A model generated the notes under the pieces. It saw nothing but the letters and a program-made list of their open reading frames with translations, was not told the origin of the DNA and ran no database searches. A program made the position numbers and the translations under genes. From Thermodesulfobacteriota bacterium (GTDB lineage Bacteria; Desulfobacterota; WTBG01; JAGOGO01): a stretch of 32,000 nucleotides of DNA. The DNA is taken from contig CP113000.1 in NCBI GenBank assembly GCA_026625185.1, forward strand, positions 420,001-452,000, in the 5' to 3' direction. Shown piece by piece: positions 1 to 30,718 of the stretch (positions within the stretch are counted from its first letter, which is position 1; every line of letters starts with the position of its first letter).

Positions 1-15
1 ATTTTATAAAGAAGA

Positions 16-942: not shown

Positions 943-1003
943 AGGTATTTTTTTTGAGTGGATATATGTGGTTTCCATTTGCAAGCTCTTTTACTGGTGA
1001 TAT

Positions 1004-2356
1004 CTATTGCTTTCCCATTGGGTTGGAAGTCCCTGCAAATGGTTGTGGATTCTTCAGGCCTTTGAAATAACGTTTACGGGTAGATAGATTGAGCCCGGCG
1101 TACACCTGGCAACCGAACAGAGTTCGTTTCCATGGGCTCATGCCAAAAAATCGTTTTGTCATTGCGCGGAAAGAATAGGCTTGTCTGTTCAAGCGGGCGA
1201 AACCGCTAATAAGCTCGTCAGCAGTCATGCCCGTGGGTTGAAAAAGGAGTGTATCCGGAGGATATCCACGGAGCCACCAGTCACTCACGAACAACCTGCC
1301 TTCGCTTAAGAGACGCTTGTATAAACGTGTTCCCGGATAAGGCGTGAGAATCCTTAGCTGCGCACAATCCATATGGCTCTTCATTATAAACTCAAGGGTC
1401 TGTTCAAACACATCCTTGTTTTCGTAATCAAAGCCAAAAACAAAGCAGCCCAGTATACCGAAACCTTCGCCATGGAATCGATGCATAGCCTCATAAAAAT
1501 CGATGCTCAGGTTCTTTATTTTATGCACTTCATTCTGTGTGTCTTTTTGCACCGATTCGAATCCAATCAAAAGCCCCAGGCAGCCCGCGCGTTTCATTAA
1601 ACCCAGTAGTTCCAAATCCTCAGCTAATGACACTGTGCCTTGCGCCAGCCACTGCCGCCTTAGAGGCATCATTTCCGTAAAGAGTTTTTTAGCTGCATTC
1701 CGGTTCAGTCCAAGGGCATCATCGACGAAGAAGAGGTGAGGGGAATCAACAGACTCTATCTCGGCAATAACCTCCTGAACCGGTCGGACTCGATATTGAG
1801 ACCCCAAGGTCTGGCCAATGCAACAGAATTCGCAATCGTACGGACATCCGCGGGATGTCTCGACACCGACCGGGATTGGAATATAACAACTATTTTTTGT
1901 TCCGGAGAAGAGATCTCGCTGTGGTTTGGGCAGACCATGGAGATCTGTCATTTTAACGGCCCGATATATTCTTTGCATCTGTCCCGAGGCGGCATCCGAT
2001 ACAAGCTGTGGCCAGATACCTTCCGCTTCTCCCACGACGACGGCGTCTGCATGCGCTAAGGCTTCGTCAGGCAATACCGTGGGGTGTATTCCTCCCATCA
2101 CCACCTTCACGCCTTTCTGGCGATAGGTGTCACCGATATGATAGGCTCTTGGCGCAAGTTCGGTCAACACGGTGATGCCCACTAAATCCACATTTTGATC
2201 AATATCATCAGGAGCAAAAACTTCCTCGACAATTGTAATCGTGTGCCCAGGCGGAGTAAGCGCCGCCAGAAGAGGAAGATTTACCCTCTGTAATTTGAAA
2301 GGGCTGGGTATCGTGTCTTCACGGTGTTCATGGGGTGCAATAAGTTTTATCTTCAT
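1004..2356 (-). CDS. B12-binding-domain radical SAM enzyme (class B rSAM)
   Basis: 450 aa. N-terminal Rossmann-like B12-binding region (VDLVGITVLT...VVMGGIHPT...VVVGEAEG) followed by the radical SAM cluster motif SRGCPYDCEFC (CxxxCxxC). Last gene of the minus-strand operon. Confidence 0.85.
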   Translation of the reverse strand: MKIKLIAPHEHREDTIPSPFKLQRVNLPLLAALTPPGHTITIVEEVFAPDDIDQNVDLVGITVLTELAPRAYHIGDTYRQKGVKVVMGGIHPTVLPDEALAHADAVVVGEAEGIWPQLVSDAASGQMQRIYRAVKMTDLHGLPKPQRDLFSGTKNSCYIPIPVGVETSRGCPYDCEFCCIGQTLGSQYRVRPVQEVIAEIESVDSPHLFFVDDALGLNRNAAKKLFTEMMPLRRQWLAQGTVSLAEDLELLGLMKRAGCLGLLIGFESVQKDTQNEVHKIKNLSIDFYEAMHRFHGEGFGILGCFVFGFDYENKDVFEQTLEFIMKSHMDCAQLRILTPYPGTRLYKRLLSEGRLFVSDWWLRGYPPDTLLFQPTGMTADELISGFARLNRQAYSFRAMTKRFFGMSPWKRTLFGCQVYAGLNLSTRKRYFKGLKNPQPFAGTSNPMGKQ

Positions 2357-2377
2357 GTCTTAACCTGCTTGTCATCA

Positions 2378-4156
2378 TCATTCAAACTTGGGGCCATTGC
2401 CGACAGGTCTCGAAACGCCCCAACCCTCATCCGGTGGTGTAGAAATCATCTTCACCACGTAATCGCCAAATCCGTGAAGAGAGCCGCTCATATAATAACG
2501 CACTCTGTTGTCTTCGGCTGTCAAAGAAAAAATCGATTTATCGTAAGGACTAACTCGCAAAGACATCGGTACCCCCATCAGGTCGAGAAGGGTCGAAAAA
2601 TTGTTAAGATGGGAAACCCTGATGCTGGGGGGAATGCCAGCTAAAAGATTCTTCTGGCCATATCGCTCACCGACCAAGAGAAACTCAGGCACATCGACGA
2701 TCACCTTGTCCGGCTTCATATGGGTATACATTTGCCCATGCTCGGCCAACGTCTGGCCATGATCCGATGTATACAGAATGACATAATTCTGATTCGTCGT
2801 TTCAGAAACGAACTCCCGGAAGAATTCATCCACCTGAAAACGAATCCCGTTGTCATAGGTATTGACGAGCTTCTCACGGCCGAAAGGGCTGGGGTCAATG
2901 GATTCCGATGATTTCATAACCGGCTTCCAAATCGTAGAGTCCATATCGTCCGGATATTTATTGCAATAGTGGAAATGAAGACCTTTCTTGTTGACGAGAA
3001 TAAAATAGCCGCCTTTATCATTCAGAAGACTACTGAGAACACGGGCTACACCCAAATCCTTCGTGATATCAAGATTGATGTGGCGCTCCTCGAACGACTG
3101 GTCGGTCATCCATTGGTCCAGGGATCTCACGAAACCCTCCCCGGCCACGTTCATGAGCGAAGAAAGGTAGACTCGATTGATGTCAATATAGATCGTCTCG
3201 TAGCCCATTTTCTTTGCGTAATCAAAGATGGTCGGGTTCTTGTCGGTTCGAAAGTCATTGTCGGGAAATGCGTTGTGACCGGTAATAAGATAGGCATTGC
3301 TGATGTGGGAAAAAGAACCGGCTGCGACACAAATGCCGAGATTCTTGAGGAGGCCCTGGGTTTCGAGGGATTGAAGGAACGGTGTGGTGGCACGTGGGTA
3401 GCCATTCAGACTGAGATTGCTGCCACGAACCGACTCATCGATCACATAGATGATGCTGTCGAGTGGCCGTTGGGAAACGTGAAACGGAGGCAGGTCGTCT
3501 CGCGGTCCACGATATCCGCGGAGGTTTTCAAACTTCCAATGAAGTGTTGAACGGAGGAAAGAGGTCAGGGGATTCAGATGGAAACTGCGTTCAGGCACAT
3601 AAAGGAAGAGAGCGTAATTGGAAACGAGGAGGTAGAGGGCCGGCAGAAAACTGAGGGCGAGAGTCAGTCGTAAGGCGGAGCGAGAGGGGACGAGGATCAG
3701 TACGGAGAGAATGAGTGCGTAGGGGAGAGCATACAACAAGACGAGTGGCTTGAAGAAGCTTGAGATGGCTTCTACTCGATGATCACCGCTGACGGTCACG
3801 GCAAGAAACAGGTCGGTGCCAGTCATGAACTGGGATAAAGTCCGCCAATAGGATAATTGGATGATAACAACAAAAGCAGAAAGAAGGATGACGACCGCGC
3901 GGAGAGATCCCGGGAGGAGGGTAATGAGATAGAAAAGGGCGACCACCTGCAGGGAGACCAGTGTGAGGATACCCGAGAATTTCATGTAGCCGAGGACCGG
4001 GAGCGAATGCAATAGATCACGGTAATCGCGGAACCTGAAAATGAGGTCGAGGAGGACAGCGAAGGTTGCTGCAACCAAGGCGGTGGTGGCACGGGGATAA
4101 GGCACTTGAGTGATGGCGCTAAAGAGGTACATTGCTATCAATGGCCCTCTTCCCAT
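2378..4156 (-). CDS. EptA/LptA-like phosphoethanolamine (phospho-headgroup) transferase, sulfatase-domain membrane protein
   Basis: 592 aa. About 5 N-terminal TM helices, then an alkaline-phosphatase/sulfatase fold. YVIDESVRGSNLSLNGYPRATTPFL resembles the EptA metal-site block, and YTSDHGQTLAEHG resembles YxSDHGExLGENG. The start could instead be Met9 at 4132. Confidence 0.7.
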   Translation of the reverse strand: MGRGPLIAMYLFSAITQVPYPRATTALVAATFAVLLDLIFRFRDYRDLLHSLPVLGYMKFSGILTLVSLQVVALFYLITLLPGSLRAVVILLSAFVVIIQLSYWRTLSQFMTGTDLFLAVTVSGDHRVEAISSFFKPLVLLYALPYALILSVLILVPSRSALRLTLALSFLPALYLLVSNYALFLYVPERSFHLNPLTSFLRSTLHWKFENLRGYRGPRDDLPPFHVSQRPLDSIIYVIDESVRGSNLSLNGYPRATTPFLQSLETQGLLKNLGICVAAGSFSHISNAYLITGHNAFPDNDFRTDKNPTIFDYAKKMGYETIYIDINRVYLSSLMNVAGEGFVRSLDQWMTDQSFEERHINLDITKDLGVARVLSSLLNDKGGYFILVNKKGLHFHYCNKYPDDMDSTIWKPVMKSSESIDPSPFGREKLVNTYDNGIRFQVDEFFREFVSETTNQNYVILYTSDHGQTLAEHGQMYTHMKPDKVIVDVPEFLLVGERYGQKNLLAGIPPSIRVSHLNNFSTLLDLMGVPMSLRVSPYDKSIFSLTAEDNRVRYYMSGSLHGFGDYVVKMISTPPDEGWGVSRPVGNGPKFE

Positions 4157-5253
4157 TTGGTGGCTATTATGCCCAGGATGAAGACCACGGCCGCGAAAAC
4201 CCCTATGATCGCGGAATATCGCAGCGCGGCCATGTGGTCTTCAAATATCATCGATGCCCGTAGCCCCTCGTTCACGTAATACAGCGGGAGCGTCTTGGCG
4301 AATGTCTGCAGGAAACCCGGCATCAGCTCGATGGGAAAGAAGCTCCCCGAGAGGAACATCATCGGGAAACTGATAGCGTTTGCGGCGGCGGCGGCGCTCT
4401 GCGCCTCCTTGACGAAGCGGGTGAGTATCATCCCGATTCCGACAAACGCGAAGACGTCAAGCAAAATGAACGCAAGAAGCCAGGCGTTTATATGCAGGCT
4501 GACGTTAAACACGGCGTAACTCACCAGCAGCATCGCAATCGTGGATATGATTGCGAGTATAAATTGGTACAGGATGTTCGACAGTATCCAGTCGGTACGG
4601 GTGATAGGCGTGGTGGATAGCTTCCTGATGACACCCTTCTGCCGCAGCTCCGTGTCCGAGTTCACCGTGCCGAACAGGCTCAACGTCATCACCGCCATTG
4701 CGATGATACCGGGGACGAAGAACTCGATGAATCGGTACTTCTTGGTGAGTATCGATCTCTCAACCGATCTGAGGAACGGTGGCTTCCCGGACATCCCCTG
4801 GTTTATCCCGGCTAACACTGAGTTCAGGATTTCCATCTTCGTGGTCACCGAAGAAGAGCTGGGGTCGTATATATAAGTGATGGTGACGGATGCGTTGAAG
4901 TCGTTGAGCATCATTCTCTGCATGAGGGACCTTTCATAGCCTTTGGGAATAACGAGGACAAGGTTCACCTTGTTGTCCATGACGTATTGCTTGGCGTTGA
5001 CGGCAGGGTCGACCCTGGTTATCTTGAATTTTCCGTTGAGCTCGAGGGTCTTGACGGCCTGTGCGGACGAATTCGTCTGGTCGAGGTCCTGCAAGCAAAG
5101 GTGGTAACCAACGTTGTCCTGACTCAAGAATATCGTGCCGAACACGAGTATCAGAATTATCGGGAACGCAATCGTGAACAAAATTGCGCTCTTCTCACGG
5201 TAGAAGCTCAGGAGCTTCACGACGAGATTTGCACTGATGATGCGCGGATTCAT
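4138..5253 (-). CDS. ABC-2 type transporter permease
   Basis: 371 aa. One N-terminal TM, a large extracytoplasmic loop, then about 5 C-terminal TM helices, typical of ABC-2 exporters. The ATGA overlap with the upstream ATPase gene (5250-5253) indicates translational coupling. Confidence 0.8.
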   Translation of the reverse strand: MNPRIISANLVVKLLSFYREKSAILFTIAFPIILILVFGTIFLSQDNVGYHLCLQDLDQTNSSAQAVKTLELNGKFKITRVDPAVNAKQYVMDNKVNLVLVIPKGYERSLMQRMMLNDFNASVTITYIYDPSSSSVTTKMEILNSVLAGINQGMSGKPPFLRSVERSILTKKYRFIEFFVPGIIAMAVMTLSLFGTVNSDTELRQKGVIRKLSTTPITRTDWILSNILYQFILAIISTIAMLLVSYAVFNVSLHINAWLLAFILLDVFAFVGIGMILTRFVKEAQSAAAAANAISFPMMFLSGSFFPIELMPGFLQTFAKTLPLYYVNEGLRASMIFEDHMAALRYSAIIGVFAAVVFILGIIATKWEEGH

Positions 5254-6200
5254 TGTTCCTCCATTTGGGGGGGGTCCTCTCGGAGCGCTTCGCCGGTGAG
5301 CTTTAAGAAGACTTCTTCCAGGTTAAGCTTCCGGACATCCAGGCCGAGGTACAGAGCCCCGGCATCCTTGATGGCATTCAGTATCTTCTGGACGTCGTCC
5401 GTGTGTTCCAACCTGACAGCGATGTTTTTGTGGTTGTCAAGGACCGGCGCGAAGCCCATCTTCCGGGCGATTTCAAAGACTTTTTCATCGACGGACTGTA
5501 GCCTGAGGACCAGGTAATTCGCGTTGCTTTCGACGAGTTCCCCGGGGGAGCCCATGGCGATTATCTTCCCCTTCGAGATGATGGCGACCGTGTCTGCAAG
5601 AAGTTCCGCTTCCTCCATGTAGTGCGTGGTGAGAAATACCGTTTTCCCCTTCTTTTTCAGGCCCAGCAGGACTTCCCACACCTCGTGCCTTGCGCGGGGA
5701 TCGAGTCCTGTCGTCGGCTCGTCGAGGAACACGACCTCGGGGTCATTCACGAGCGCAATCGCGATTCCGAGGCGCTGCTTCAAGCCACCGGAGAGTTTCT
5801 TGTACTGCTCTTTGGTCTTGTCCTTGAGGTTCACGAGCTCTATCAGCCCGTCGATATCGGTGTTCCTGCAGCAGAAAAGCCGCGAGTAATACTGGATGGT
5901 CTCCCTGACCGTTATCCTGTCGAACGAGCTGAACCCCTGCGGGAGGACGCCGATGCGGGGGACGATGTCGTGTTTTTTCTTCGTGACGTCCATCCCCAGA
6001 AGGCTTACTTTCCCCGACGTGGGCGTACGGATTGTATCGATGATCTCGACGGTCGTGGTCTTGCCGGCGCCATTCGGGCCCAGCAGGGAAAAAACTTCGC
6101 CTTTGCTGACGGTAAACGATATATCGTTTACCGCCAGCAAATTTCCGTAACGCTTCGTTAGTTTGTCGACTTCAATTGCGTATTCGGTTTCTTTGGTCAT
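5250..6200 (-). CDS. ABC transporter ATP-binding protein
   Basis: Walker A GPNGAGKTT, signature LSGGLKQRL, Walker B VVFLDEPTTGLD. The ORF track starts at GTG 6227, but ATG 6200 (MTKETEY) is preceded by GGAG with 5-nt spacing, so it is preferred. Confidence 0.9.
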   Translation of the reverse strand: MTKETEYAIEVDKLTKRYGNLLAVNDISFTVSKGEVFSLLGPNGAGKTTTVEIIDTIRTPTSGKVSLLGMDVTKKKHDIVPRIGVLPQGFSSFDRITVRETIQYYSRLFCCRNTDIDGLIELVNLKDKTKEQYKKLSGGLKQRLGIAIALVNDPEVVFLDEPTTGLDPRARHEVWEVLLGLKKKGKTVFLTTHYMEEAELLADTVAIISKGKIIAMGSPGELVESNANYLVLRLQSVDEKVFEIARKMGFAPVLDNHKNIAVRLEHTDDVQKILNAIKDAGALYLGLDVRKLNLEEVFLKLTGEALREDPPQMEEQ

Positions 6201-6247
6201 GAATCTCCATTTCGCCTCTATAGGCACCAGTATTGAAAGTCTTTACG

Positions 6248-7492
6248 TCAGGCCTTCTTCGGGCGCTGAAGACGCTCTCCCCGTCTGAGTTCATTCGCCT
6301 GACTGGCCAGATCAAGGCGGCGAACAATGATGTGCTCCTGTCGGCCCTGGACCGGTACGCCCGGGGCGGCGCGAGAGGAGACGGAGGGCCAGAACCCGAG
6401 AAGGCTGAGTACCTTCTCGCTCACCGCCGGCCATGCGATAAGAAAACGATCAATCACGGGTTGGCGGTGTTTGAATAAAATAAAGCTCGGGATTAACGTC
6501 GCACCCAGATGCGCTTTGGTTTTCTCCGCGCCCTGGCCTGCGTGATAGAGAGGGATTTTTCGCTCCACGCAGGTGCGGATATTTTCAAACCAGGACAAAA
6601 CATAAAGGTTGTACTTGCGGCCGAGCTCGTAATCCATGCAGAAATATTTATCCACCATCGCTTCTTGTTTTACGACGAGAAGGTTGAAAGCGGCGAGTTT
6701 TTCCTGCACAAAATAGAGCGTGTATTCGGCGCCGGGGACTCGCTCACAGATTTTTTCAAAAAATAAACGGTTGTGCGCGCCCAACGCCATGGGGCTGCGC
6801 GCCACTGTTTCCAGATAAAGTTTGTAGATCCTGTCCAGAAAAGGAGAAATATTGCGGCTTCGAATGACTCTGACTTCGTGGGAGGCACGCATTTTGCGAC
6901 GCAGGTCTTTTCTCGCGGCCCTTGAAAGGCGGGCTAAGAATTCCTCCAGGCTGTTAAAATTGATCGGCAGCCGGGCGCAAGCCCGATATTGCACCCGGTT
7001 GAATTTTTTGAATACTTCCCCGGGAAGTTTGCCGTAATGATTAAAGTTGTAAAGCGCCACGATGTCGCTTTTAAGTTCGGCCGCGAGCTTTTGCAAAACG
7101 CCAAAGGCCATTTTGTATGCCGCCTCGAGGGTTCCCGCCTCGGTTTGAAGATCAATCCCGATTTCACTCCATTCCCCTTCCAGCAACCCCACGCTTAAAA
7201 CACGGGGTTGAAAAACCGAGGGGATGAGACGGCCTGCCACTTTCAGCGATTTCTTGATCCCTCCCTCCACAAAAGTGGACAAATCAAAACGGGTTTCAAA
7301 CAACGGCAATAAGAGAATCGGAGCATCATCTTTTAACACCACGATGCTGCGCAGGTTAAAACCGTCAATACCCGATTCTTGCAACAGAGAAAGAAGAGAG
7401 GCGGTGATAGAAGGCTCCGGGAAAAGCCGTCCAAGTTCTGCCGCCGACACTCCGTCTAACCGCGGCACGCAATTACAGGTAAGGTTATCCAT
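6248..7492 (-). CDS. GNAT-fold acyltransferase, FemAB-like/BioF2-like type (putative)
   Basis: 414 aa. The C-terminal block YFCMDYELGRKYNLYVLSWFENIRTCVERKIPLYHAGQGAEKTKAHLGATLIPSFILFKH resembles the conserved core of FemAB_like/Acetyltransf_6 proteins as I recall it. The start ATG overlaps the PPTase stop (CATGGATAA). Confidence 0.45.
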   Translation of the reverse strand: MDNLTCNCVPRLDGVSAAELGRLFPEPSITASLLSLLQESGIDGFNLRSIVVLKDDAPILLLPLFETRFDLSTFVEGGIKKSLKVAGRLIPSVFQPRVLSVGLLEGEWSEIGIDLQTEAGTLEAAYKMAFGVLQKLAAELKSDIVALYNFNHYGKLPGEVFKKFNRVQYRACARLPINFNSLEEFLARLSRAARKDLRRKMRASHEVRVIRSRNISPFLDRIYKLYLETVARSPMALGAHNRLFFEKICERVPGAEYTLYFVQEKLAAFNLLVVKQEAMVDKYFCMDYELGRKYNLYVLSWFENIRTCVERKIPLYHAGQGAEKTKAHLGATLIPSFILFKHRQPVIDRFLIAWPAVSEKVLSLLGFWPSVSSRAAPGVPVQGRQEHIIVRRLDLASQANELRRGERLQRPKKA

Positions 7493-8240
7493 GGTATGTC
7501 GGTCTCCGATCCAAAAGGGCGATGGAAAGCCACATCTTCTTCTGAGGAAGCGAAAGTACCCATAAGGACCGGCCGGCAGCTATAGGAAACCGCACCAGGG
7601 CATTCCCTGATAAGCCTACCGGAAAGGTGTACCCGCCATCATCCCCTATCGATGGATAGATGTAGATTTGCCGCGGATACACGAGATGGAATGCACATCC
7701 CAGTGCCTTGACAACGGCTTCCTTGATAGACCAAAGCATGGCTGATGCCTTTTCCAAATTTCCGTCCGCCAATCTTAAGGCGTGTTGGAGCTCTTGCACA
7801 TGGAAGACACGATGAAATGGGTATTTTCGGTTAAATTCATCGGTCCCTGCTACATCGATGCCGATATCAGACTCATCTCCAGAGAGAGCGGCCCAGACTT
7901 TTCCTCCACCCTCGCTGAAGGAGATGGCCGGGCCTCGATCTTCTCCCAACAGGAGATGGGGCCTGCCAAGTGGGTCACGAACCACCTGAATGGGGAAAGC
8001 AGCTCCGTTGGTCGAATGACAGTATTTCCAAAGAGGCCCTTCCATCGCCACCAGGCGATCCAACAAGAAGGAGACGAGGCGGTACTTGTCTCCTGCCTCG
8101 TTCGTCCCGCACCCATTGAAGGTTTCGGTGGCACATGGCATGGATGCACAGAAGACGGGGCCCCTTTGGTGAACGAACCTCGCAACATGGACAGTTATTT
8201 CTTGGCTATCTCTTGTCACATTTAACTCCATCTTTCCCAA
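7485..8240 (-). CDS. 4'-phosphopantetheinyl transferase (Sfp/PfaE-type)
   Basis: 251 aa. Motifs PLGRPHLL (GxP), ISFSEGGG, IGIDVAG and the hallmark WSIKEAVVKALG (WxxKEAxxK). Lies immediately downstream of the megasynthase. Confidence 0.75.
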   Translation of the reverse strand: MGKMELNVTRDSQEITVHVARFVHQRGPVFCASMPCATETFNGCGTNEAGDKYRLVSFLLDRLVAMEGPLWKYCHSTNGAAFPIQVVRDPLGRPHLLLGEDRGPAISFSEGGGKVWAALSGDESDIGIDVAGTDEFNRKYPFHRVFHVQELQHALRLADGNLEKASAMLWSIKEAVVKALGCAFHLVYPRQIYIYPSIGDDGGYTFPVGLSGNALVRFPIAAGRSLWVLSLPQKKMWLSIALLDRRPTYHG

Positions 8241-8271
8241 AAAAACTTCACTCTTTCTGAGCCCTTAAGGC

Positions 8272-11200: not shown

Positions 11201-14200
11201 CCTTCTTGGAATGTTGGGTTAAGCTCTTGTCGGATAGCTTCCAGGATGTTGGGCTTAAGGACGGGTCCGAAGGTCTCTATCATGAATCGGTTGATTTCCC
11301 TTTGAATGATCCTCTCCACCGGGTTGGAGCCTACAGGCCCAAGTTCCGACGGCCGTAATGCGGGTGCTGGGGCGATTCGGTGAGATTCGGGAGTTTTTCT
11401 GAATGAAGAGAGGGAAACAAACCTCGGTTCCCCTTCAACCTTCAGATGACCTTGGACGAAGAGCTGAGCAAGGGCGGTCTTGTAGGTCAGGCACTCTGCG
11501 GAAGGAAGACACGTCTGGATGCACGCCGGTTCAGGAAGCGTGTCGGCGATGAGATGGCTTAATGTTTCGTCGGGCCCCACCTCCACGAAGAGCCGGACTC
11601 CGTAGTCATTCCAAAGGGTCCGGACATTATTCATCCAATGGACGGTATTTTCCAGGTGGAACATCAGGATTCGCCTGATCTCAACGGGATCTGATGGATA
11701 CGGTGCCATGGTCGTGTTGGAGATGACGGGAATCTGCGGGGAATGAAATGGAATGGAGGCAACGTACGCCTCGAGCTCATCATGGATGACCTTCATGATA
11801 GGGGAGTGGAAGGCCATGCTGACCCGTAAGAGGGTGGCCCGGTATCCCATTTCCTTCAATCTTTTGCACAGATCCTTGACCGCTTCGGTGCTGCCGCTCA
11901 GGACAACCTGGTTCGGTGAATTGATATTGCCGATGTGGACATCCTCCCGTCCCTGGATCATCTCTCTCAGCAGATCCAGGTGAACGTCCACGGCCGCCAT
12001 GATGCCGGGTTCCACGTGCATGCCAGCAGCCTTGTCCATGCAAAGGGCTCTCTTGTTCACGATTCCAAACCCGTCCTCCGGGGAATAGACACCGGCCAGG
12101 CACAAGGCGGTCAGCTCGCCTAAACTATGGCCGGCCATGGCCACCGGGTGGATACCCAGGTTGGTGAGGTATCGAGCCATGGCGTGTTCCATGGCAAACA
12201 TGGCGGGTTGCTGCCACCGGGTCTTCTGAAGGTTCTCCTCGCGATCGTGGAACATTAAATGAAGAAGGTCGAAGTCCGCCACAGCCGCAGCACGATCCAT
12301 CCACTCCCTGATGACGGGAAAGGACTCGTAGAGATCCCGCCCCATTCCTCCATACTGTGAACCCTGTCCGGGAAATACTAAGGCGAGCGGCAGGGCCGGC
12401 AGATCCTCGGGGCTCATGAAAATTCCCTGTTGCGCCAGAGCCCTCAACACCTTAGGTGAGAGGATTTCGGCTTCGGCAAGGGAGACCGACCTCTCGATGA
12501 CCGTGAGCGCCTCTTCTTCGGATTGCGCCACAACAGCCATCCGATAGTTATGGCCGCTCACCTTAGTCCGGAAGGAAGAGACGCCCTGAAGCATGGGAGA
12601 GCCACCCTCCTTCTCTCTATCGAGACCGGGTTCTCTGCCCGGTGAGACCAGGATCGTATCCACTTCATCCATGGCCTGCTCCACCTGCACAACGTAGTTG
12701 GAACCTCCAAACCCGAAAGCATTGACCTGAAGCCTTCTTGGCTGGCTGTCCCTGCCCTTCCAATCAAGCGGCTTTGGGTTGATGAAAAGCCCCGATCCTT
12801 CCAGGTCGATTTCCGGGTCTGGATGCATATAATTAAGGGTAGGAGGAAAAACCCCCGCCTTCATGGCCATGACTCCTCGAATGAGGCTGTTAATGCCCGA
12901 GGCGCCCAGTGTGTGTCCGATCTGGGATTTGAATGAGGTAATCACGGTGCGATTGGAGGAATTGAAGACGGCCTTCAGGGCGCGGACCTCCTCCACGTCC
13001 CCTTGCCGGGTGCTCGTGGCATGGCATTCCACCAGGTCTACTGCATTGGGCCCATAGGGTATCCCCCGGAAAGAGGCGCGGATGGCGATCTCCTGGGCGG
13101 CGCTGGTCGACTCCACCATGCCCAGATGATTGTTGCCCCCCCCCATGCCGGTGATGACCGCGTGGAGACGCGCTCCTCTTGCACGGGCCAGGCTTTCCCT
13201 CTCGATGACGATCATCCCCCCGCCTTCGCCGAGGACCATCCCGTCTCTTTCAGCATCGAAGGGGCGGGAGGTCTCGTGAGTAGGTCTTTCCTGTCTGGAC
13301 AGCCCGTAAAGTGCGCCCAGGGCGGAGAATTCCAGAAAATGCAAATGGGTGAGATTGTCCTCGCCCCCTCCGACGATGGCTGCATCGATGATGCCGCTCC
13401 GGATCATCTGGATGGCGCAGTGAAGTGCCACCAGTGAGGTCGCGCAGGCTGCGGAGACAGAATAGCTGGGCCCCATGAACCCATACCGGTTGCAGATAAA
13501 GCCGGCCGCAGCACAGTTGAGCCTGCCCAGGAGTGTGGTGTCGTCCGGGGCCATTCGTCCGGACTTTACCTCCTGTTCGATGGCGCTCTCCAAATCTGGG
13601 GTGAGGTGAACGGCCCTTTTGATAGCGCCAAGGATATCGTGGACGTATTCCCTGATGATCATATTGGTGAGGGTTCCCGCCGCCTCTCCCGAGTTCTGGG
13701 AGATCAGGACCGCGATTCGCTCGCGTGGGATGTCTGACTCCAGGATACCGGATGCCCGGATGGCCCTGTCCGCCAGCCACATGGTGATTCTTGTCGCCTC
13801 GGTCATGCTCCGGAAATCATGAGGGGGGATCCCGAGTTCATTGCGGGAGATAGGAAAGTCTAAGAAGGCGCCCACCTTGCAGTAGGTCTTGTCCGGAACC
13901 TGCGGCCGGGGATCATAAAAAAGCCCGTGATCCCACCGCGAAGGCGGAACCAATGTAATCCCGCTCTTCATGTCCAGGCTTGCAGCCCAGACTTCTTCCG
14001 GACTCTTCCCCAGGGCATTTAGTATGCTCATCCCAGTGATAGCAACCCTTTCGTAATCGTCTCTATGGGGGGCGACTCGCTTCAGTCCACGGCCGACCCC
14101 GGAGGATGGAGTTTCCATGGATAGCGACGCTTTGGGTGTGGGGGTGGGCTGATGCAGCAAAAGAGGACCTTCGGCCAGCTCGCAGTGAAAGGACTTAAGC

Positions 14201-16212
14201 TTCTGGACCTCACGGATGAGGCCGGCGCAGGCCCCACTCATGAATTGCCCGCGTCCCAGACAGCCCCGCTCATCCAAAGCCATCCCGCCCGGCCTGTCCA
14301 TGCCTCGGGCCGCAGTGAAGAGGCTCCCCGCGGCTATCTCCTCCATTTTCGTCCGGAAAGAGGCCTCGTCCTGGTGACCCGCTGCGAACTCTCTTTCCAG
14401 GGATAAAATAGCTTCCACTCCCGGCGTTTTCAAGGATCGCACCCGAAGCCCGGTGTGCTGGCCTGAAACGACTGTTCCCCCCGGAGGCGATTTCAGGATC
14501 AGCTGTTGATAGAGCGTTGTCAAGGCGCCCGTTTCAACGATCTCCTGGGTGGCCAGGTAGGCGGTACCCATCTGGATGGCGTCCGCGCCGAGCATGGCGG
14601 CCATTAATGCGGTCTCCCGATCGAAGATTCCCCCTGCAAGGATCACGCGACATTTTTGGAACAGGGATGGCGTGCGCCGCTTGAGATCCAACAGCATTTG
14701 CGCAAGGGTGAGCGTGCTATGTTGCCCTACGTGGCCGCCAGCCTCATACCCTTCGCAGACCACGTATCGGACGCCCGCTTCAAGGGCGAGCCTCAACAAG
14801 ACCTCATCAGGAGCGATATACATGACCCCTATGCCGCATTCTATCAATTCTCTTACAGGGGAGAGATCGCCGCCTGCAATCACGGCAAAACAGGGTCTGT
14901 GTTTCATTATCCAGGCCAGATGCGTCTCCCTGAACGGGTTCTCGGCCAAAGAGACGACATTCACTGCATATGGGCGCCCCCCCATGATCTCCGACAGGCG
15001 CCCCAGCCTCCGGTCAAGGGCCTCCGCGTCCATCAGGCCAAGGGCGATGGTGGGCAATCCACCGGCATCGGCAACTCTTGAGGCAAACTCCGGGACATCG
15101 GTGATCCAGGACATGGCCCCCTGGATAAAGGGATATTTAGTTCCCATCTCTCTCGCTACAGGGCTGTTTAAAAAGCAATCCTTTTTCGCCTCCGCCAGAT
15201 GGCATGAGTTTCGAATCTCGTCCATGAAGGCCGTCACGGCCTCCTCGGTTTTGAACCCGAAACGCTCAACGAATGACCGGGCAAAGGTGGTCTCCACAGC
15301 AAGAGGGATGACCTCGTCCTGCGTGAAATGGCTCTCCAAAGGGTGGAGGGCCCTGGCATGCACCTGGCTTACGAAGGAGCGCTGGCTTTCTTCCGTGATC
15401 TCTGCTCCGCACAGCGAGTCCTCAAGCGTCTTGATCTCCTTGAAGGCGCGAGAGTTTCCCTTGTTGAAAAGGCGACAGGGAACCTGCAGGTCCAGGCCAA
15501 CCAGATCGGTAGAATCCAGGCGAAGGTTGGAGAGCCGCTGGCGCTGGAGATCATCAATGGCCACCAGGTCTGTCAGCCAATGGACGCTCTCGAAGACGAT
15601 CCCCGCCGCCCCTGTGGACAGGAATGCGGCTGCCGCCTCAGGGGTGAAGACGCCTCCCCAGATGAGGATGTCCAGAGACCTCGATGGGGTGCGCAGCATT
15701 TCCTTGACAACTGAATAGAGCACCAGAGTCGTCTCGCCGCTCACGAATCCGGAGGCCTCGCATCCTTTCAGGACGATCCGCCCAATTCCCGATCTATCCT
15801 TCAAAAAGGCTGCCAGGAGATCCAAATTTGCGATGATTGGAAAGCAACAATAGTCTTCCGACAATTTCCTCAATCTGTGGAGAAAAATGGAAGGATCGCT
15901 TTGAAGAAACTGGGGGTGGCACTCTACCCAGATGTCGTGGGCCCTTGTTTCCTTCAATAACTGCCCCAAAGATGGATCCATCAAGGTAGGGATAGAAATC
16001 TTGATATCCCTGACAAGGCCGGCAGGGTCATCCTTTCGCAAGAAAGAATGTAACTCTTCCACCCCCATAGTGGAAAAATCAAAGATGGCTCTGCTCCCTG
16101 TTCGCTGAGCCATGTGAATCACCGATGGGATGATCTCCTCAGGCCGCCAGACGAAACCGATGATAGAAACCCGATGCTCAGCCACTATGTCAGACCTTTG
16201 CTTCAACACCAT
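8272..16212 (-). CDS. Type I FAS/PKS-like megasynthase (PfaD-like ER fused to a PfaA-like KS-AT-ACP-KR-DH core)
   Basis: Single uninterrupted 2646-aa ORF. AGGTGA Shine-Dalgarno 5 nt before ATG 16212. All domain motifs were located directly (see domain features). No thioesterase or reductase release domain at either end. Confidence 0.95.
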   Translation of the reverse strand: MVLKQRSDIVAEHRVSIIGFVWRPEEIIPSVIHMAQRTGSRAIFDFSTMGVEELHSFLRKDDPAGLVRDIKISIPTLMDPSLGQLLKETRAHDIWVECHPQFLQSDPSIFLHRLRKLSEDYCCFPIIANLDLLAAFLKDRSGIGRIVLKGCEASGFVSGETTLVLYSVVKEMLRTPSRSLDILIWGGVFTPEAAAAFLSTGAAGIVFESVHWLTDLVAIDDLQRQRLSNLRLDSTDLVGLDLQVPCRLFNKGNSRAFKEIKTLEDSLCGAEITEESQRSFVSQVHARALHPLESHFTQDEVIPLAVETTFARSFVERFGFKTEEAVTAFMDEIRNSCHLAEAKKDCFLNSPVAREMGTKYPFIQGAMSWITDVPEFASRVADAGGLPTIALGLMDAEALDRRLGRLSEIMGGRPYAVNVVSLAENPFRETHLAWIMKHRPCFAVIAGGDLSPVRELIECGIGVMYIAPDEVLLRLALEAGVRYVVCEGYEAGGHVGQHSTLTLAQMLLDLKRRTPSLFQKCRVILAGGIFDRETALMAAMLGADAIQMGTAYLATQEIVETGALTTLYQQLILKSPPGGTVVSGQHTGLRVRSLKTPGVEAILSLEREFAAGHQDEASFRTKMEEIAAGSLFTAARGMDRPGGMALDERGCLGRGQFMSGACAGLIREVQKLKSFHCELAEGPLLLHQPTPTPKASLSMETPSSGVGRGLKRVAPHRDDYERVAITGMSILNALGKSPEEVWAASLDMKSGITLVPPSRWDHGLFYDPRPQVPDKTYCKVGAFLDFPISRNELGIPPHDFRSMTEATRITMWLADRAIRASGILESDIPRERIAVLISQNSGEAAGTLTNMIIREYVHDILGAIKRAVHLTPDLESAIEQEVKSGRMAPDDTTLLGRLNCAAAGFICNRYGFMGPSYSVSAACATSLVALHCAIQMIRSGIIDAAIVGGGEDNLTHLHFLEFSALGALYGLSRQERPTHETSRPFDAERDGMVLGEGGGMIVIERESLARARGARLHAVITGMGGGNNHLGMVESTSAAQEIAIRASFRGIPYGPNAVDLVECHATSTRQGDVEEVRALKAVFNSSNRTVITSFKSQIGHTLGASGINSLIRGVMAMKAGVFPPTLNYMHPDPEIDLEGSGLFINPKPLDWKGRDSQPRRLQVNAFGFGGSNYVVQVEQAMDEVDTILVSPGREPGLDREKEGGSPMLQGVSSFRTKVSGHNYRMAVVAQSEEEALTVIERSVSLAEAEILSPKVLRALAQQGIFMSPEDLPALPLALVFPGQGSQYGGMGRDLYESFPVIREWMDRAAAVADFDLLHLMFHDREENLQKTRWQQPAMFAMEHAMARYLTNLGIHPVAMAGHSLGELTALCLAGVYSPEDGFGIVNKRALCMDKAAGMHVEPGIMAAVDVHLDLLREMIQGREDVHIGNINSPNQVVLSGSTEAVKDLCKRLKEMGYRATLLRVSMAFHSPIMKVIHDELEAYVASIPFHSPQIPVISNTTMAPYPSDPVEIRRILMFHLENTVHWMNNVRTLWNDYGVRLFVEVGPDETLSHLIADTLPEPACIQTCLPSAECLTYKTALAQLFVQGHLKVEGEPRFVSLSSFRKTPESHRIAPAPALRPSELGPVGSNPVERIIQREINRFMIETFGPVLKPNILEAIRQELNPTFQEGDLSFVIKSMLGDSGYPEGQKQVSPGNTVSPPLDATPYIPGQASPVPAEAPEDQDLMERIIRIIMDATGFERDEIKPDMDLRKDLSIRSSRLPIIMDAAERQFGITIELEDFIGVRTVKDIAQRISKIIARLGGTSLKPAAKAPDFDPARDEILKPPEDEASLKRLVFNHVKVKLAASIPMELTPGESVLLLSPDGDDGIARSAGDILRLDYGVDTVPMLFMPENFGPGEKGLDIRTDEGVSRAVDRIAGLSPLAGMVITLCQGGSGRLRGMADVSRLLRGIFLLLKTFLQSPAKKFVVLVHSKEDTEPFGQLLAEGVLGLFLSAAQEYPSVQFRTLEIDKDADLRVALRGALDRGCTVVETIHRDGRVFTSEGQLAPSVFGDSSSLNLRPGDVVVMSGGATGISVHLARCLVPFGPRLVFLGRTPLEPAKSRPEDSASEAFPFDHRTSEIARTLADLRSSGIEATYHTCDVTDPQAVHAILGEVASRYGKIDGIIHGAGVLRDGLLSQMTPDDFSMVTDVKFLGAWNLFSAAEGSGLRFFVGLSSGAAILGNPGQANYAAANRMMSALLRTIHRKNGSIRFKALMLPPVEGEGMADDPEIRELMKRKGAAYIHVNELAGLFCRELFVAPADDDWVMLTRRLPAVKTALLNDTTRPSFSGNLDGGTVSLSPEDFPMIERISCLDIRREKLEAIRSFSLEKDLWIADHRPLKFVKHPLVSAAMVLETFMEAARILYPHLQVRGVRQVRLMDMIRCPAGVTRPSMISCRRSATSLREVVCEVSLSTQEISPTGRLTNRFTPHCKGQVILDGGEGNFGEGLPDFPVRLDELLTRPMDHKKVLKWYKERSGLADRYRVMEFLDGAGPGVVRGRTTYRETSDFAHLRNARYQYSPYLLEALLQLVGFYIAATNPSERRALIPVEIGEMRFLLKCRVGEQITLEARMRAQDEEGSAWDARGIDDQGHTIMQVYDMRMHWVSD
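8275..9180 (-). other. Megasynthase domain: PKS-type (double hot-dog) dehydratase; approximate bounds, aa 2345-2646
   Basis: LWIADHRPLKFVKHPLVSAAM is an HxxxGxxxxP-like motif with Lys in place of Gly (His codon 9082-9084, about His2377). Later SPYLLEALLQL corresponds to the hPALLDxxxQ motif with Glu in place of Asp. Confidence 0.7.
9433..10725 (-). other. Megasynthase domain: ketoreductase (structural plus catalytic subdomains); approximate bounds, aa 1830-2260
   Basis: Rossmann motif VVVMSGGATGISVHLA (about aa 2067-2080). Catalytic GQANYAAAN (Tyr codon 9535-9537, about Tyr2226). Confidence 0.8.
10813..11040 (-). other. Megasynthase domain: single acyl carrier protein; approximate bounds, aa 1725-1800
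   Basis: LMERIIRIIMDATGFERDEIKPDMDLRKDLSIRSSRLPIIMDAAERQFG. The putative phosphopantetheine Ser (codon 10936-10938, about Ser1759) follows Arg rather than the usual Asp. A possible degenerate ACP-like helix bundle lies just upstream (VERIIQREINRFMIETFG...). Confidence 0.65.
11488..12390 (-). other. Megasynthase domain: acyltransferase (malonyl-type); approximate bounds, aa 1275-1575
   Basis: FPGQGSQYGGMG, MAGHSLGELTA (Ser codon 12124-12126, about Ser1363). The MAFHS motif resembles the HAFH motif of malonyl-specific ATs. Confidence 0.85.
12673..14055 (-). other. Megasynthase domain: ketosynthase; approximate bounds, aa 720-1180
   Basis: RVAITGMS start. Active-site SAACATSLVALHCA (Cys codon 13444-13446, about Cys923). 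ECHATSTRQGD and KSQIGHTLGASG His motifs. FGFGGSNYVVQVEQ end. Confidence 0.9.
14143..15165 (-). other. Megasynthase domain: FMN-type enoyl reductase (nitronate monooxygenase / PfaD / FabK-like); approximate bounds, aa 350-690
   Basis: KYPFIQGAMSWITD...AGGLPTIALG, CEGYEAGGHVG (His codon at 14731-14733), ILAGGIFD...GADAIQMGTAYL. Confidence 0.8.
15193..16185 (-). other. Megasynthase domain: degenerate nitronate-monooxygenase-like TIM barrel (pseudo-ER); approximate bounds, aa 10-340
   Basis: RIVLKGCEASGFVSGETTLVLY...ILIWGGVFTPEAAAAFLSTGAAGIVF aligns by eye with the second domain's RYVVCEGYEAGGHVGQHSTLTL...VILAGGIFDRETALMAAMLGADAIQM. The EAGGH histidine is replaced here (EASGF). Confidence 0.55.
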
Positions 16213-16283
16213 TCGTTCACCTATTATGACAATTTGCCAGTTTGATCAATTCCACCCGATACGCTCAAGTATCAGCGCGATCG

Positions 16284-17129
16284 TCACCGCTTCCAAGCCA
16301 GGTACCACTCCGTGGCATCACTCCCGATTCCTAACCGGGCAAGCTGGCGTAGATCCGTTTCCAGAACGTCGGGCGTGCCATACTCCAGTATGCCGTATTG
16401 GGGATCCGTCCAGACACGCGCCGTCCGACCCCAAACCTTCGTTTCCGGCGGCAAGGTGAGGCGAATGCGGTGGATCAGGTTGATGCCCGCGAGCGCCGCT
16501 GCTTCTATCACCATATCGGTGCAGTTGTTGCTTCTCACGCCGAACTGGTCATAGTTCCGCTGCATCACGTATTCATGTATCAATTGATACCGACGCCGGG
16601 TAATCGGCATTCGCCAGACGAACGAGGGGGGGCGATTGGGCTTGCCGGTCTGGAATCGACCATCGGACATCGTCTGCCACAAGTAGGCAATAGGATTGGG
16701 ATGCCCCTCCCGAATTCTCTGAAACACGCCGTCATGGTAACGCGGTTTACTGTGCCCCAAGTCCCCGGTGTGGCCGAATTCCAGACGATCCCGGGGACTT
16801 TCCAGGATGAGCCAGCTATGCCCCCACGGACGCTGCCAGATTGAGAAGAGAAGCGACTTGGTAGTTCTGTAGTCCCAATTGGCAGCTTCGTTCAGGATAT
16901 AAAGGTAATGTCCCTCGTCCCCCACGGGTGTTCCGGTGGCGAGATCCAGGTCGGCATCGGGGGCAAAGCGGCACACGATCGAGATGGGCTGGACACTCCA
17001 GCCATCGGGTTGCATCGGAGCATAGAGCCGGGGCGTTCGGCGGGCGCATCTGACCGCAACCCCGGCCAGCCATCTCATCACCACGAGGAGACGTGCTCGA
17101 TATACTCGCTCGGTTGCTTTGCTATTCAT
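16284..17129 (-). CDS. Hypothetical protein with His...His...Cys pattern (possible permuted NlpC/P60 or LRAT-like acyltransferase/hydrolase)
   Basis: 281 aa. WGHSWLILE (His104), EFGHTG (His120) and SNNCTDMV (Cys203), which is reminiscent of NCEHFV in LRAT/H-REV107 proteins. ATGA overlap with the upstream gene (17126-17129). The coding call is solid; the function is speculative. Confidence 0.5.
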   Translation of the reverse strand: MNSKATERVYRARLLVVMRWLAGVAVRCARRTPRLYAPMQPDGWSVQPISIVCRFAPDADLDLATGTPVGDEGHYLYILNEAANWDYRTTKSLLFSIWQRPWGHSWLILESPRDRLEFGHTGDLGHSKPRYHDGVFQRIREGHPNPIAYLWQTMSDGRFQTGKPNRPPSFVWRMPITRRRYQLIHEYVMQRNYDQFGVRSNNCTDMVIEAAALAGINLIHRIRLTLPPETKVWGRTARVWTDPQYGILEYGTPDVLETDLRQLARLGIGSDATEWYLAWKR

Positions 17130-18247
17130 AAGGACTTTCTGAATATTCGATATTTTTTGTATCTTTTTGCGCCGGCTTCCTCTATCAGAGAGTTGATCGA
17201 CTCGTTGTCCTCCAGGGTCCAGCCCATTTCCAGATACTGATATTTCTTTTGTTTCCTCGCGATCTCATAGATGTGGTGAAAGGCAAGCATGGGGATTCCA
17301 AGCTCCCGGTATTCCTCCTTGATCCCGAACATCAAACACCTCAGTCCCCTGATCTCCCGTCGATACAACAGGAACTTCAGCATACCCAGGAGACCGATCC
17401 GGCCGTTGAAACGCTTGAGCAAAGGGTTAATGTCGGGAAAGATCACGCAGACCGCTGCGGGTTCATTTTCAAAATAGATGAAAAAAGCCAAATCCGGATC
17501 CGCGAATGCCATTACGCTCTTTTGAATGTCCTTCATCTCGTTATCGCTCAGGGGAACGAAACCCCAGTTACCAGACCAGGAGTCATTGTAAATTTTTCTG
17601 ATCAGGGCAAACTCGGCATCCTCCTCTTCTGGACGAAAGCGCCTGATGTGGATACCCTTTTTCCTGACTATTCGTTCAGCCAGACGGTCCATCCACTCAG
17701 GAAGGCGGTAATCGCCGTCTATCAGGAAAGCCAGCAGGTCCTTTTCTTTGCTGAAACCGCACGATTCGACCAGCCCGGGGTAGTACGGCGGGGTGTAGGA
17801 CATCATCAGGGCAGGCGGATACTCGAAGCCCTCAATAAGCAAGCCCACCTCGTAATTGGTGGACGGGCTGAGCGGGCCTCTCAAGAAGGTCATGCCCTTC
17901 TGATGAACCCACGTCTCCACCGAAGAGAAGAGGGCCGCCGCGGCCTCCGGATCGTCAGCGCATTCGAAGAATCCCCAAATGCCCATCTTTTCGAAGTGGA
18001 ACTGGTTATAATGATCATCTATAATGCCCGCAATCCTTCCCACCGTCTCCGAACCGCGTCGGGCCAGAAAGAGGATGCGCTCGGAAAATTCCCAGAACGG
18101 GTGACTGCGGGGGTCCAGCAACCGGCGAACCTCTTTCTTGAGGGGAGGAACCCAGTTGGGGTGCCCAGCATAGATTCTCCATGGCAGGCCAATGAAGTCC
18201 TTTAATTCCGATTTTCCTTCCACAGTAGTGATTTCCATGCCAGCCAT
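17126..18247 (-). CDS. GNAT-fold N-acyltransferase-like protein (two-lobed, about 370-aa family)
   Basis: 373 aa. The N-terminal LPWRIYAGHPNWVPPL block and C-terminal YRELGIPMLAF...LEMGWTLEDNESINSLIE block match, from memory, a widespread family annotated only as GNAT N-acetyltransferase. First gene of the operon. Confidence 0.5.
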   Translation of the reverse strand: MAGMEITTVEGKSELKDFIGLPWRIYAGHPNWVPPLKKEVRRLLDPRSHPFWEFSERILFLARRGSETVGRIAGIIDDHYNQFHFEKMGIWGFFECADDPEAAAALFSSVETWVHQKGMTFLRGPLSPSTNYEVGLLIEGFEYPPALMMSYTPPYYPGLVESCGFSKEKDLLAFLIDGDYRLPEWMDRLAERIVRKKGIHIRRFRPEEEDAEFALIRKIYNDSWSGNWGFVPLSDNEMKDIQKSVMAFADPDLAFFIYFENEPAAVCVIFPDINPLLKRFNGRIGLLGMLKFLLYRREIRGLRCLMFGIKEEYRELGIPMLAFHHIYEIARKQKKYQYLEMGWTLEDNESINSLIEEAGAKRYKKYRIFRKSL

Positions 18248-18286
18248 GATAATTCTTTCGAGTAGTTATTACTGAAAAAAAGTTTT

Positions 18287-18316
18287 ATAATAGCACCTAT
18301 GAGTTACTAAAAGCAA
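18287..18316 (-). promoter_or_regulatory. Candidate sigma70-type promoter for the megasynthase operon
   Basis: On the minus strand: TTGCTT (18311-18316), 18-nt spacer, TATTAT (18287-18292), about 40 nt upstream of ATG 18247 in a 97-nt AT-rich gap. Pattern match only. Confidence 0.25.
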
Positions 18317-18344
18317 ATTATTTTTTGTATCCTCTTCCATGTCC

Positions 18345-29843: not shown

Positions 29844-29877
29844 TGCTTCTCCTTACTGTCATGGGCGACAAAAAAAA

Positions 29878-30646: not shown

Positions 30647-30718
30647 TTATTCCACCCCTTTTTTTAAAGCGTTTAATTCTGAAACAAAACGTGCTGTCTG
30701 AGTGAGGAGAACTGATGA

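Follow-up and report, generated by a model that had tools for sequence, protein, structure and literature searches.

A megasynthase operon headed by a ceramide-synthase-family protein as the probable acyl-chain half of a sphingolipid-type locus in uncultured bacteria

This analysis concerns a stretch of 32,000 nucleotides from a Thermodesulfobacteriota bacterium (assembly GCA_026625185.1, contig CP113000.1, positions 420,001 to 452,000; hereafter the window), and in particular an operon of nine genes on its minus strand (1004-18247) that is arranged around a 2646-residue megasynthase. Most likely, the operon forms one half of a sphingolipid-type locus, the half responsible for making the acyl chain and for decorating and exporting the lipid. 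The product favored here, with modest confidence, is a ceramide-type lipid that the operon builds and exports, in which the chain made by the megasynthase would be placed on a sphingoid base by the product of the first gene, p373, and headgroups would be added by PAP2 and EptA-like membrane proteins. Sphingolipid-type metabolism is indicated because p373 falls in the YghO/bacterial ceramide synthase (bCerS) family and because genes resembling those for serine palmitoyltransferase (Spt), the reductase CerR and PAP2_3 proteins lie around the operon. In view of the same genes, the proposal of a wholly undescribed lipid class, made in a sequence-only reading of this DNA, is not borne out.

The functional locus runs past position 1004, as it includes a convergent PAP2 gene and an Spt-like gene outside the window. 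The genes of the operon, with the PAP2 gene, are as follows (window coordinates):

17126-18247, minus strand: p373, tandem-GNAT N-acyltransferase of the YghO/bCerS (CC_1154) family, first gene of the operon
16284-17129, minus strand: p281, conserved His/Cys protein, accessory
8272-16212, minus strand: megasynthase, 2646 aa, iterative, with the order degenerate TIM barrel, FabK-type enoylreductase (ER), ketosynthase (KS), acyltransferase (AT), acyl carrier protein (ACP), ketoreductase (KR), dehydratase (DH)
7485-8240, minus strand: Sfp-type phosphopantetheinyl transferase (PPTase; ACPS, E 3e-9)
6248-7492, minus strand: FemAB_like/Acetyltransf_6 protein (Pfam, E 7e-8 and 5e-5), accessory, not a relative of YghO
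5250-6227, minus strand: ABC transporter ATPase, DrrA/NodI-like (ABC_tran, E 6e-31; TIGR01188, 261 bits)
4138-5253, minus strand: ABC-2 permease (ABC2_membrane_3, E 1e-36; six hydrophobic segments)
2378-4156, minus strand: EptA-like putative membrane phospho-headgroup transferase (Sulfatase, E 4e-22), accessory
1004-2356, minus strand: B12-binding radical SAM (rSAM) enzyme (Pfam B12-binding, Radical_SAM and DUF4070), accessory, putative tailoring enzyme
16-942, plus strand: PAP2_3 membrane protein with multiple transmembrane segments (PAP2_3, E 1.5e-19), convergent with the operon

Assignment of p373 to the ceramide synthase family

On sequence, p373 can be assigned to the YghO/bCerS family, as it aligns with YghO of Escherichia coli BL21 over 373 of 380 residues at 31% identity (BLASTP, E 7e-68). 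The BL21 gene yghO (ECD_02850), which in the cluster used here for comparison accompanies genes for a FAAL, an epimerase, an ACP and spt, is listed as a homolog of Caulobacter CC_1154, a ceramide N-acyltransferase (PMC9386255), and CC_1154 is needed for ceramide formation (PMC11324152). Homologs of p373 form 1883 clusters, and no Pfam model matches the protein; like p281, which also lacks a Pfam match, it is nevertheless a genuine and strongly conserved gene. Since the predicted structure model is of low confidence (pLDDT 58), the assignment rests on the YghO comparison, though the Foldseek matches of the model are consistently to GNAT folds, namely the tandem GNATs 7q3a and 5kgh, MshD and FemX. 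The sequence-only reading had termed p373 GNAT-like and had missed its membership in the YghO/bCerS family. The FemAB-like protein was also considered as a ceramide synthase and was set aside, having no similarity to YghO.

Conservation of the operon across related genomes

Orthologs were sought in one genome per GTDB species, and synteny was established by tblastn. The number of evaluable loci differs from gene to gene, and 22 loci are fully flanked (10 kb). In total, 50 loci in metagenome-assembled genomes (MAGs; designated by L-numbers such as L003 and L016, with L064 denoting the flank of the source contig) carry full or partial orthologs in the same order, with best-matching segments that are 69-91% identical. 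The carriers belong to the Syntrophorhabdales, Syntrophobacterales, Desulfuromonadales, Desulfobulbaceae, Thermodesulfovibrionales/Nitrospirota and Sedimentisphaerales, so that the phyla Thermodesulfobacteriota, Nitrospirota and Planctomycetota are represented, in addition to a Bacteriovoracaceae MAG. All of the carriers found are MAGs, none of them cultured, and their habitats are peat, fen, soil, groundwater and sediment. To judge from these loci, the arrangement is conserved far beyond chance.

The frequencies of the individual genes differ across the related loci. In all 40 evaluable loci with upstream sequence, p373 is present, always directly upstream of the megasynthase or with only p281 between. 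The PPTase gene is found in 30 of 31 evaluable loci and the ABC ATPase and permease genes in 25 of 27, while p281 (24/40), the FemAB-like protein (15/27), the rSAM enzyme (15/26) and the EptA-like protein (9/26) occur less regularly. Because of these differences, the operon is divided here into a near-universal core of five genes, which consists of p373, the megasynthase, the PPTase and the ABC-2 pair as far as the covered sequence extends, and four accessory modules, the window containing a "long" variant with all four. The idea of nine co-conserved genes therefore holds for the core, whereas p281, the FemAB-like protein, the rSAM enzyme and the EptA-like protein are variable.

The GC content of the operon genes is 0.49-0.59, with third-position values (GC3) of up to 0.75, and it is 0.36-0.45 in the PAP2 gene, in the 2-oxoacid:ferredoxin oxidoreductase (POR) and Spt-like genes beyond it and in the genes at 18345-22131. 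An IS110 transposase gene (23552-24586 of the window) and other mobile-element genes lie nearby, the neighbourhood considered comprising the IS110 region and L064 1-5500; also encoded there are a HepT/MNT toxin-antitoxin pair, a PD-(D/E)XK protein and a resolvase. Orthologs in the Nitrospirota and Planctomycetota are 74-88% identical. In combination, the GC-rich island, the mobile-element genes and the similarity across phyla suggest that the operon was spread by horizontal transfer.

Sphingolipid genes around the operon

Clustering of all open reading frames (ORFs) of the related loci revealed two neighbour families with a bearing on sphingolipids, an Aminotran_1_2 alpha-oxoamine synthase (AOS) and an SDR of the NAD-dependent epimerase/dehydratase family. 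The best model for the AOS is the serine palmitoyltransferase model NF047600 (CFB type), at 558-591 bits against a cut-off of 640, in comparison to 392-414 bits for Kbl and 397-400 bits for BioF, and the AOS of related loci is 41% identical to the Spt of BL21 (E 6e-98). The SDR of related loci is 32% identical to the CerR-type epimerase of BL21 (E 8e-44). Among the fully flanked loci, an intact AOS gene lies within 10 kb of the operon in 13 of 22 and the CerR-like SDR in 10 of 22. Further recurrent neighbours are PLD/cardiolipin-synthase-like, DUF4833, MBL and AsmA/YhdP-like proteins.

In the typical layout, the operon is followed by PAP2, AOS and SDR genes, all on the minus strand relative to it and convergent with it. 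Orthologs of the PAP2 protein of the window (65-74% identity) stand in such an SDR-AOS-PAP2 block, adjacent to the operon, in L023, L036 and L040, and the PAP2-AOS arrangement is also seen in L003 and L018. On the source contig, the order across the window edge is POR-alpha/beta, Spt-like AOS and PAP2, with the Spt-like gene (L064 8801-9997) immediately before window position 1. The POR alpha and beta genes (IOR/VOR-like; L064 6391-8707) adjoin the Spt-like gene on its upstream side. This placement is peculiar to the source genome, the other loci showing no conservation of the pair, and the enzyme might provide acyl-CoA primers of a branched or aromatic kind.

Some of the related genomes contain two bCerS paralogs. 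The second (bCerS2) accompanies Spt and CerR in L016 (3352-9714), L027 (3603-9090) and L043 (20255-25945), and Spt in the truncated L052 (19-4098). It is 37% identical to YghO (E 3e-82) and 36-41% identical to p373. In L016, the co-directional order is CerR, Spt, bCerS2, an ORF, p373, p281 and megasynthase; this order is repeated in L027 and partially in L052, so that bCerS2 lies upstream of p373, p281 and the megasynthase in these three loci. As a more YghO-like paralog already accompanies Spt and CerR, the second copy argues that p373 is a specialised one, which would serve the megasynthase.

The sphingoid base appears to have an acyl supply of its own, as suggested by the CFB type of the Spt and by two kinds of genes. 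First, single polypeptides of about 1170 residues join FAAL (AMP-binding), ACP and AOS in L008 (22131-25670), L043, L047 and L051. The FAAL part is 35% identical to the AasR-type ligase of BL21 (E 1.5e-70), and the fusion thus unites in one protein what Rhodobacteria encode as the AasR-AcpR-Spt trio. Second, a stand-alone ACP (97 aa) and a FabF-like KS (414 aa) are encoded with an MBL-fold protein next to DUF4833 in L003 (16538-19529), and this module also lies between the operon and PAP2/Spt in L018, L023, L026, L036 and L040. The Spts of Bacteroidetes use acyl-CoA (PMC11324152).

Domain architecture of the megasynthase

The domains of the megasynthase, all on the minus strand, are as follows:

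15163-16212, minus strand: degenerate second NMO/FabK-like TIM barrel, residues 1-350 (NMO, E 0.0058)
14191-15150, minus strand: ER, FMN/TIM-barrel, FabK-type, with His494 in EGYEAGGH (NMO at residues 356-619)
12673-14052, minus strand: KS, residues 721-1128, with Cys923, His1064 and His1100 (ketoacyl-synt N and C, E 1e-49 and 3e-26)
11515-12387, minus strand: AT, malonyl-type, residues 1279-1561, with GHSLGE and MAFH (Acyl_transf_1, E 7e-47; FabD TIGR00128, 216 bits)
10828-11031, minus strand: single ACP, with DLSIRSSRL (PP-binding at residues 1728-1795, E 1.5e-6)
9415-10020, minus strand: KR, residues 2065-2246, with Tyr2229 in NYAAAN (Pfam KR, E 2e-36)
8275-9177, minus strand: C-terminal DH, polyketide synthase (PKS)-type double hotdog, with His2377 and Glu2564 in LLEALLQ (PS-DH, E 1e-11)

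The DH is a complete double hotdog, with weak PKS_DH_N and FabA matches besides that to PS-DH, and in AT domains an xAFH motif supports a malonyl assignment. The catalytic motifs of ER, KS, AT, ACP, KR and DH are invariant in the 18 intact orthologs. In the attachment motif of the ACP, an Arg precedes the Ser in place of the usual Asp, and this too is invariant in the 18. No TE (thioesterase) domain, chain-length factor (CLF) gene or FabA-type DH gene was found with Pfam in the window. The description of the enzyme as fully reducing, with one ACP and no TE, is borne out by this domain content. The NCBI annotation of the protein is merely "SDR family oxidoreductase".

The relationship to the pfa-type synthases is less close than had been proposed. 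In the sequence-only reading, the ER was called PfaD-type; however, it scores 151 bits with the FabK model TIGR03151 (model positions 7-291 of 307) and 29.9 bits, on a short stretch, with the PfaD model TIGR02814, of which the cut-off is 449. The ER is called FabK-type here because the FabK model outscores the PfaD model by far. Similarly, the KS-AT-ACP-KR-DH order does resemble that of PfaA, but the match to the PfaA model TIGR02813 is partial, at 433 bits against a cut-off of 1010 and with a single PP-binding domain, and membership in the PfaA subfamily is not supported.

The N-terminal degenerate barrel had been overlooked. In its KGCEASGF motif, Phe156 takes the place of the His found in the EAGGH of the ER proper, and in the 18 intact orthologs its column identity is 74% and the KGCEASGF motif is invariant. 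As TIM-barrel ERs act as dimers, with a heterodimer in the case of the thraustochytrid pair (PMC13311796), it is reasonable to suppose that the degenerate barrel and the active ER may form an intramolecular dead/active pseudo-dimer.

Proposed pathway and alternative explanations

In the favored pathway, the PPTase would activate the single ACP of the megasynthase, which would elongate and fully reduce a chain from malonyl units and retain it on the ACP. The chain would then be moved by p373 to the amino group of a sphingoid base, or of 3-ketosphinganine, from the neighbouring Spt-like enzyme, and a CerR-type reductase would finish the ceramide. The amino acid used for the base may be serine, alanine or cysteate. 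Phospho-headgroups would be added by the PAP2_3 and EptA-like proteins and, in other genomes, by PLD-like membrane enzymes, and the ABC-2 pair would flip or export the lipid. In the long variant, the rSAM enzyme, the FemAB-like protein and p281 may tailor the chain or help its release. The PAP2_3 Pfam family includes ceramide phospho-headgroup transferases, and on such family knowledge headgroup addition by the PAP2_3 and EptA-like proteins and export by the ABC-2 pair seem sensible assignments. Off-loading by a GNAT-type protein, addition of a phospho-headgroup and ABC-2 export had already been put forward in the sequence-only reading, and these remain the most sensible steps.

Several observations weigh against this pathway. 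The comparison of p373 was made with YghO and not with the biochemically studied Caulobacter enzyme, and the bCerS family is described as acyl-CoA N-acyltransferases (PMC9386255), while the donor proposed here is an acyl-ACP. A CerR-like gene was found neither in the window nor in the 10 kb on the side of the PAP2 gene, and 9 of the 22 fully flanked loci have no Spt-like gene within 10 kb. The Spt-like gene of the source contig has an in-frame TGA at codon 317 (L064 9749-9751), which replaces the Gly of a conserved LG(F/Y) and is consistent with a change from GGA to TGA. The resulting split gene call (316 and 63 aa) is identical in three assemblies. With the TGA translated as Gly, the gene scores 591 bits with NF047600 (cut-off 640). 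The stop could mark a pseudogene, stem from a sequencing artefact that the assemblies share, or be overcome by read-through. Furthermore, no specific role is given to p281, the FemAB-like protein or the rSAM enzyme, all steps beyond the gene content are inferred, and after spread by horizontal transfer the operon need not be functional in the present host. We know of no evidence that characterised bCerS enzymes accept acyl-ACP.

An alternative is suggested by SgaA and SgaB of Pseudomonas fluorescens MYb115, which make PKS-derived sphingolipids (bioRxiv 10.1101/2024.02.06.579051; Nat Commun 2025, PMC12134224) and in which an ACP-bound C22-C26 chain is passed directly to a KBL-like AOS. By analogy, the long acyl-ACP of the megasynthase would be condensed with serine by the Spt-like AOS, and p373 would N-acylate the product with an ordinary acyl-CoA. 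The frequent location of the AOS next to the operon and the lack of a TE in the megasynthase agree with such a route, which is nevertheless considered unlikely. The constant upstream partner of the megasynthase is the bCerS paralog (40/40) and not the AOS (13/22), the AOS has its own FAAL-ACP or ACP and KS in several loci, and p373 is still present as an extra copy beside the canonical CerR-Spt-bCerS2 set. In addition, the domain order differs from that of SgaA, and the megasynthase scores 546 bits against a cut-off of 1740 with the "PKS_plus_SDR" model NF045894, which may or may not represent SgaA. Transfer of the chain by p373 is preferred because the AOS often has an acyl supply of its own, because the Spt fits the CFB type and because p373 is kept even beside a canonical bCerS.

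A product outside the sphingolipids is judged improbable to a similar degree. Here p373 or the FemAB-like protein would off-load the chain onto a free amino acid, a polyamine or another amine or hydroxyl, giving an exported, phospho-decorated N-acyl aminolipid, and the linkage to Spt and CerR would be a loose co-localisation of envelope-lipid genes. This would account for the fully flanked loci without a nearby AOS and for the interruption of the local Spt-like gene. Additionally, p373 is divergent, with 31% identity to YghO against 37% for bCerS2, and its acceptor may have changed given that it is a divergent paralog; the FemAB-like, EptA-like and rSAM genes are without counterpart in the BL21 sphingolipid cluster. 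However, the co-directional CerR-Spt-bCerS2-p373-p281-megasynthase set recurs, as does the SDR-AOS-PAP2 block (partly truncated in some loci) across orders and phyla, for which chance is hard to credit. The inclusion of ceramide phospho-headgroup transferases in the PAP2_3 family also speaks for a ceramide-type product.

A synthase for polyunsaturated fatty acids (PUFA), olefins or another classical pfa-type "secondary lipid" is very improbable. The genes present effectively refute this reading, and it was also rejected on the family cut-offs, since the PfaA-like domain order, the partial TIGR02813 match and the adjoining Sfp-type PPTase gene are set against a window with one ACP and without PfaB, PfaC, CLF, FabA-type DH or any ole genes found, against scores below the PfaA and PfaD cut-offs, and against a typology of 20 types of which none matches (Shulse & Allen 2011). 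PfaB and PfaC are absent from the recurrent neighbour families of the related loci as well as from the genes of the window.

Beyond the ceramide-type pathway favored here, a broader proposal can be offered only tentatively. The locus may define a structurally new sphingolipid class, with a megasynthase-built amide chain, a direct ACP-to-p373 handover and rSAM tailoring. Lipids of this class might be common, though so far overlooked, in the envelopes of uncultured anaerobes from groundwater, sediment, soil and peat, and they would then be candidates for the origin of orphan lipid signals in the environment.

Comparison with known systems

In the Spt-bCerS-CerR pathway (CC_1162, CC_1154 and CC_1164 of Caulobacter; spt-yghO of BL21), p373 finds its counterpart as a full-length family member, and the related loci match the BL21 cluster in Spt (41%), the CerR-type epimerase (32%) and the AasR-type FAAL (35%). 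In known ceramide systems, the cerS-type gene is in a transcription unit separate from spt and cerR (PMC11324152), and the same is true here. The differences are that a bCerS paralog lies here upstream of a 2646-residue megasynthase with its own ACP and PPTase, that two bCerS paralogs occur in some related genomes, and that ABC-2, EptA-like, PAP2_3, FemAB-like and B12-rSAM genes are present here but not in the BL21 cluster.

With SgaAB, the locus shares an iterative, fully reducing, TE-less type I synthase that feeds, or here would feed, an ACP-bound long chain into sphingolipid synthesis, and products of the SgaAB route receive phospho-headgroups. SgaA comprises KS, AT, DH, ER, KR and ACP with a cryptic domain, whereas the order here differs. 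SgaAB is a two-gene cluster with a KBL-like AOS in a host without Spt; here, the AOS gene belongs to a unit of its own, convergent with the operon, and the fixed partner of the synthase is a ceramide-synthase paralog. In contrast to P. fluorescens, the carriers are uncultured Thermodesulfobacteriota, Nitrospirota and Planctomycetota and a Bacteriovoracaceae MAG.

Among the pfa-type synthases, the nearest is Type J, with pfaD and KS-MAT-ACP3-KR (Shulse & Allen 2011). The KS-AT-ACP-KR(-DH) order, the TIM-barrel ER in front and a nearby Sfp-type PPTase are common to both, but here the activities form a single polypeptide with one ACP, an ER closer to FabK and an extra degenerate barrel, and there is no PfaB or PfaC.

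The gene combination had been thought to match no characterised cluster, and this stands, as it was not found in the literature searched, including the typology of Shulse & Allen 2011. Likewise, that literature, together with a 2026 survey of pfa hybrids that was screened for terms, yielded no account of a synthase of the Pfa/FabK type with a link to Spt or bCerS. Bacterial sphingolipid loci are already known, including PKS-fed ones; what has not been described is the type of synthase, the way in which it is coupled to a paralog of ceramide synthase, the set of accessory enzymes and the lipid produced.

Bacterial sphingolipid synthesis, and with it the PKS route of SgaAB, has been worked out only recently, and metagenomic surveys suggest a capacity for sphingolipids in many anaerobic phyla. 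If the favored pathway is true, the locus would represent a third design for bacterial sphingolipids, in which a ceramide-synthase paralog is fed by its own megasynthase. It would also provide a concrete gene set for ceramide-type lipids of anoxic soils and peat, of use to lipid geochemists and envelope biologists, at a locus hidden by current annotation. For enzymology, the oddities are the tandem of a dead and an active FabK-type ER and the possible use of acyl-ACP by an enzyme of the bCerS family.

Operon layout, accessory genes and other features of the window

All nine minus-strand ORFs have the coordinates given in the sequence-only reading, and JGI and NCBI, annotating the source contig independently, called the same nine genes, with slightly later starts for those of the EptA-like protein, the ABC ATPase and the PPTase. 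The intergenic gaps, if the longest ORFs are taken, are 71 nt (between p281 and the megasynthase), 31, 20 and 21 nt. The overlap of p373 with the next gene is a 4-nt ATGA stop/start (17126-17129), read directly as was a second at 5250-5253, and the ORF coordinates give further overlaps of 8 nt (7485-7492) and 19 nt (4138-4156). The co-directional arrangement with these gaps and overlaps was confirmed in full, as were, with Pfam, the domain calls for the rSAM enzyme, Sulfatase, the ABC-2 pair, the FemAB-like protein, ACPS and the megasynthase. A promoter and terminator scan of 1-19800 gave the same counts as in shuffles and is uninformative, and Rfam and tRNA scans of the window gave no matches.

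The accessory protein p281 has homologs in 584 clusters, and its family comprises 248 representatives at 50% identity. Members are about 250-300 residues long, with a core at residues 70-280, the motifs VGHAW and QCxxFV, and the invariant residues G103, H104, W106, G119, P146 and C203. No Pfam or NCBIfam model matches p281, and searches of PDB sequences, run both with p281 itself and with two profiles, gave nothing credible. Weak Peptidase_C97/PPPDE matches were obtained for 4 of 43 members (best E 0.026), the best Foldseek match of a low-confidence AlphaFold model (pLDDT 56) is the Cys peptidase 3kw0 (E 0.69), and an hhalign comparison with an approximate PLAAT3 sequence aligned 16 columns around the Cys motif at 5% probability. 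With its His before the Cys, p281 is possibly a permuted papain-fold thiol enzyme of the PPPDE/LRAT/YiiX-like kind.

The EptA-like protein has about five N-terminal transmembrane segments and a Sulfatase score of 79 bits against a cut-off of 25, and it thus shows the features of the superfamily. It is not a member of the EptA/MCR equivalog families, for which the best model is NF028537 (76 bits against a cut-off of 500). For the rSAM enzyme, HpnJ and BchE are the best NCBIfam matches, with scores that fall far short of the cut-offs; a ladderane-type rSAM enzyme was considered and rejected, as the score with TIGR04072 is 74 bits against a cut-off of 360.

By tblastn synteny, genes upstream of 18247 are conserved in none of the related loci, and none of the neighbours at 18345-22131 and 28935-31645 is co-conserved with the operon. 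These neighbours encode a trypsin-like protease with TPR repeats, a 231-aa protein without hits, AhpC/thioredoxin-like and MauE/DoxX proteins, a rhodanese, an alpha/beta hydrolase, a BON-domain protein and a DUF3309 protein.

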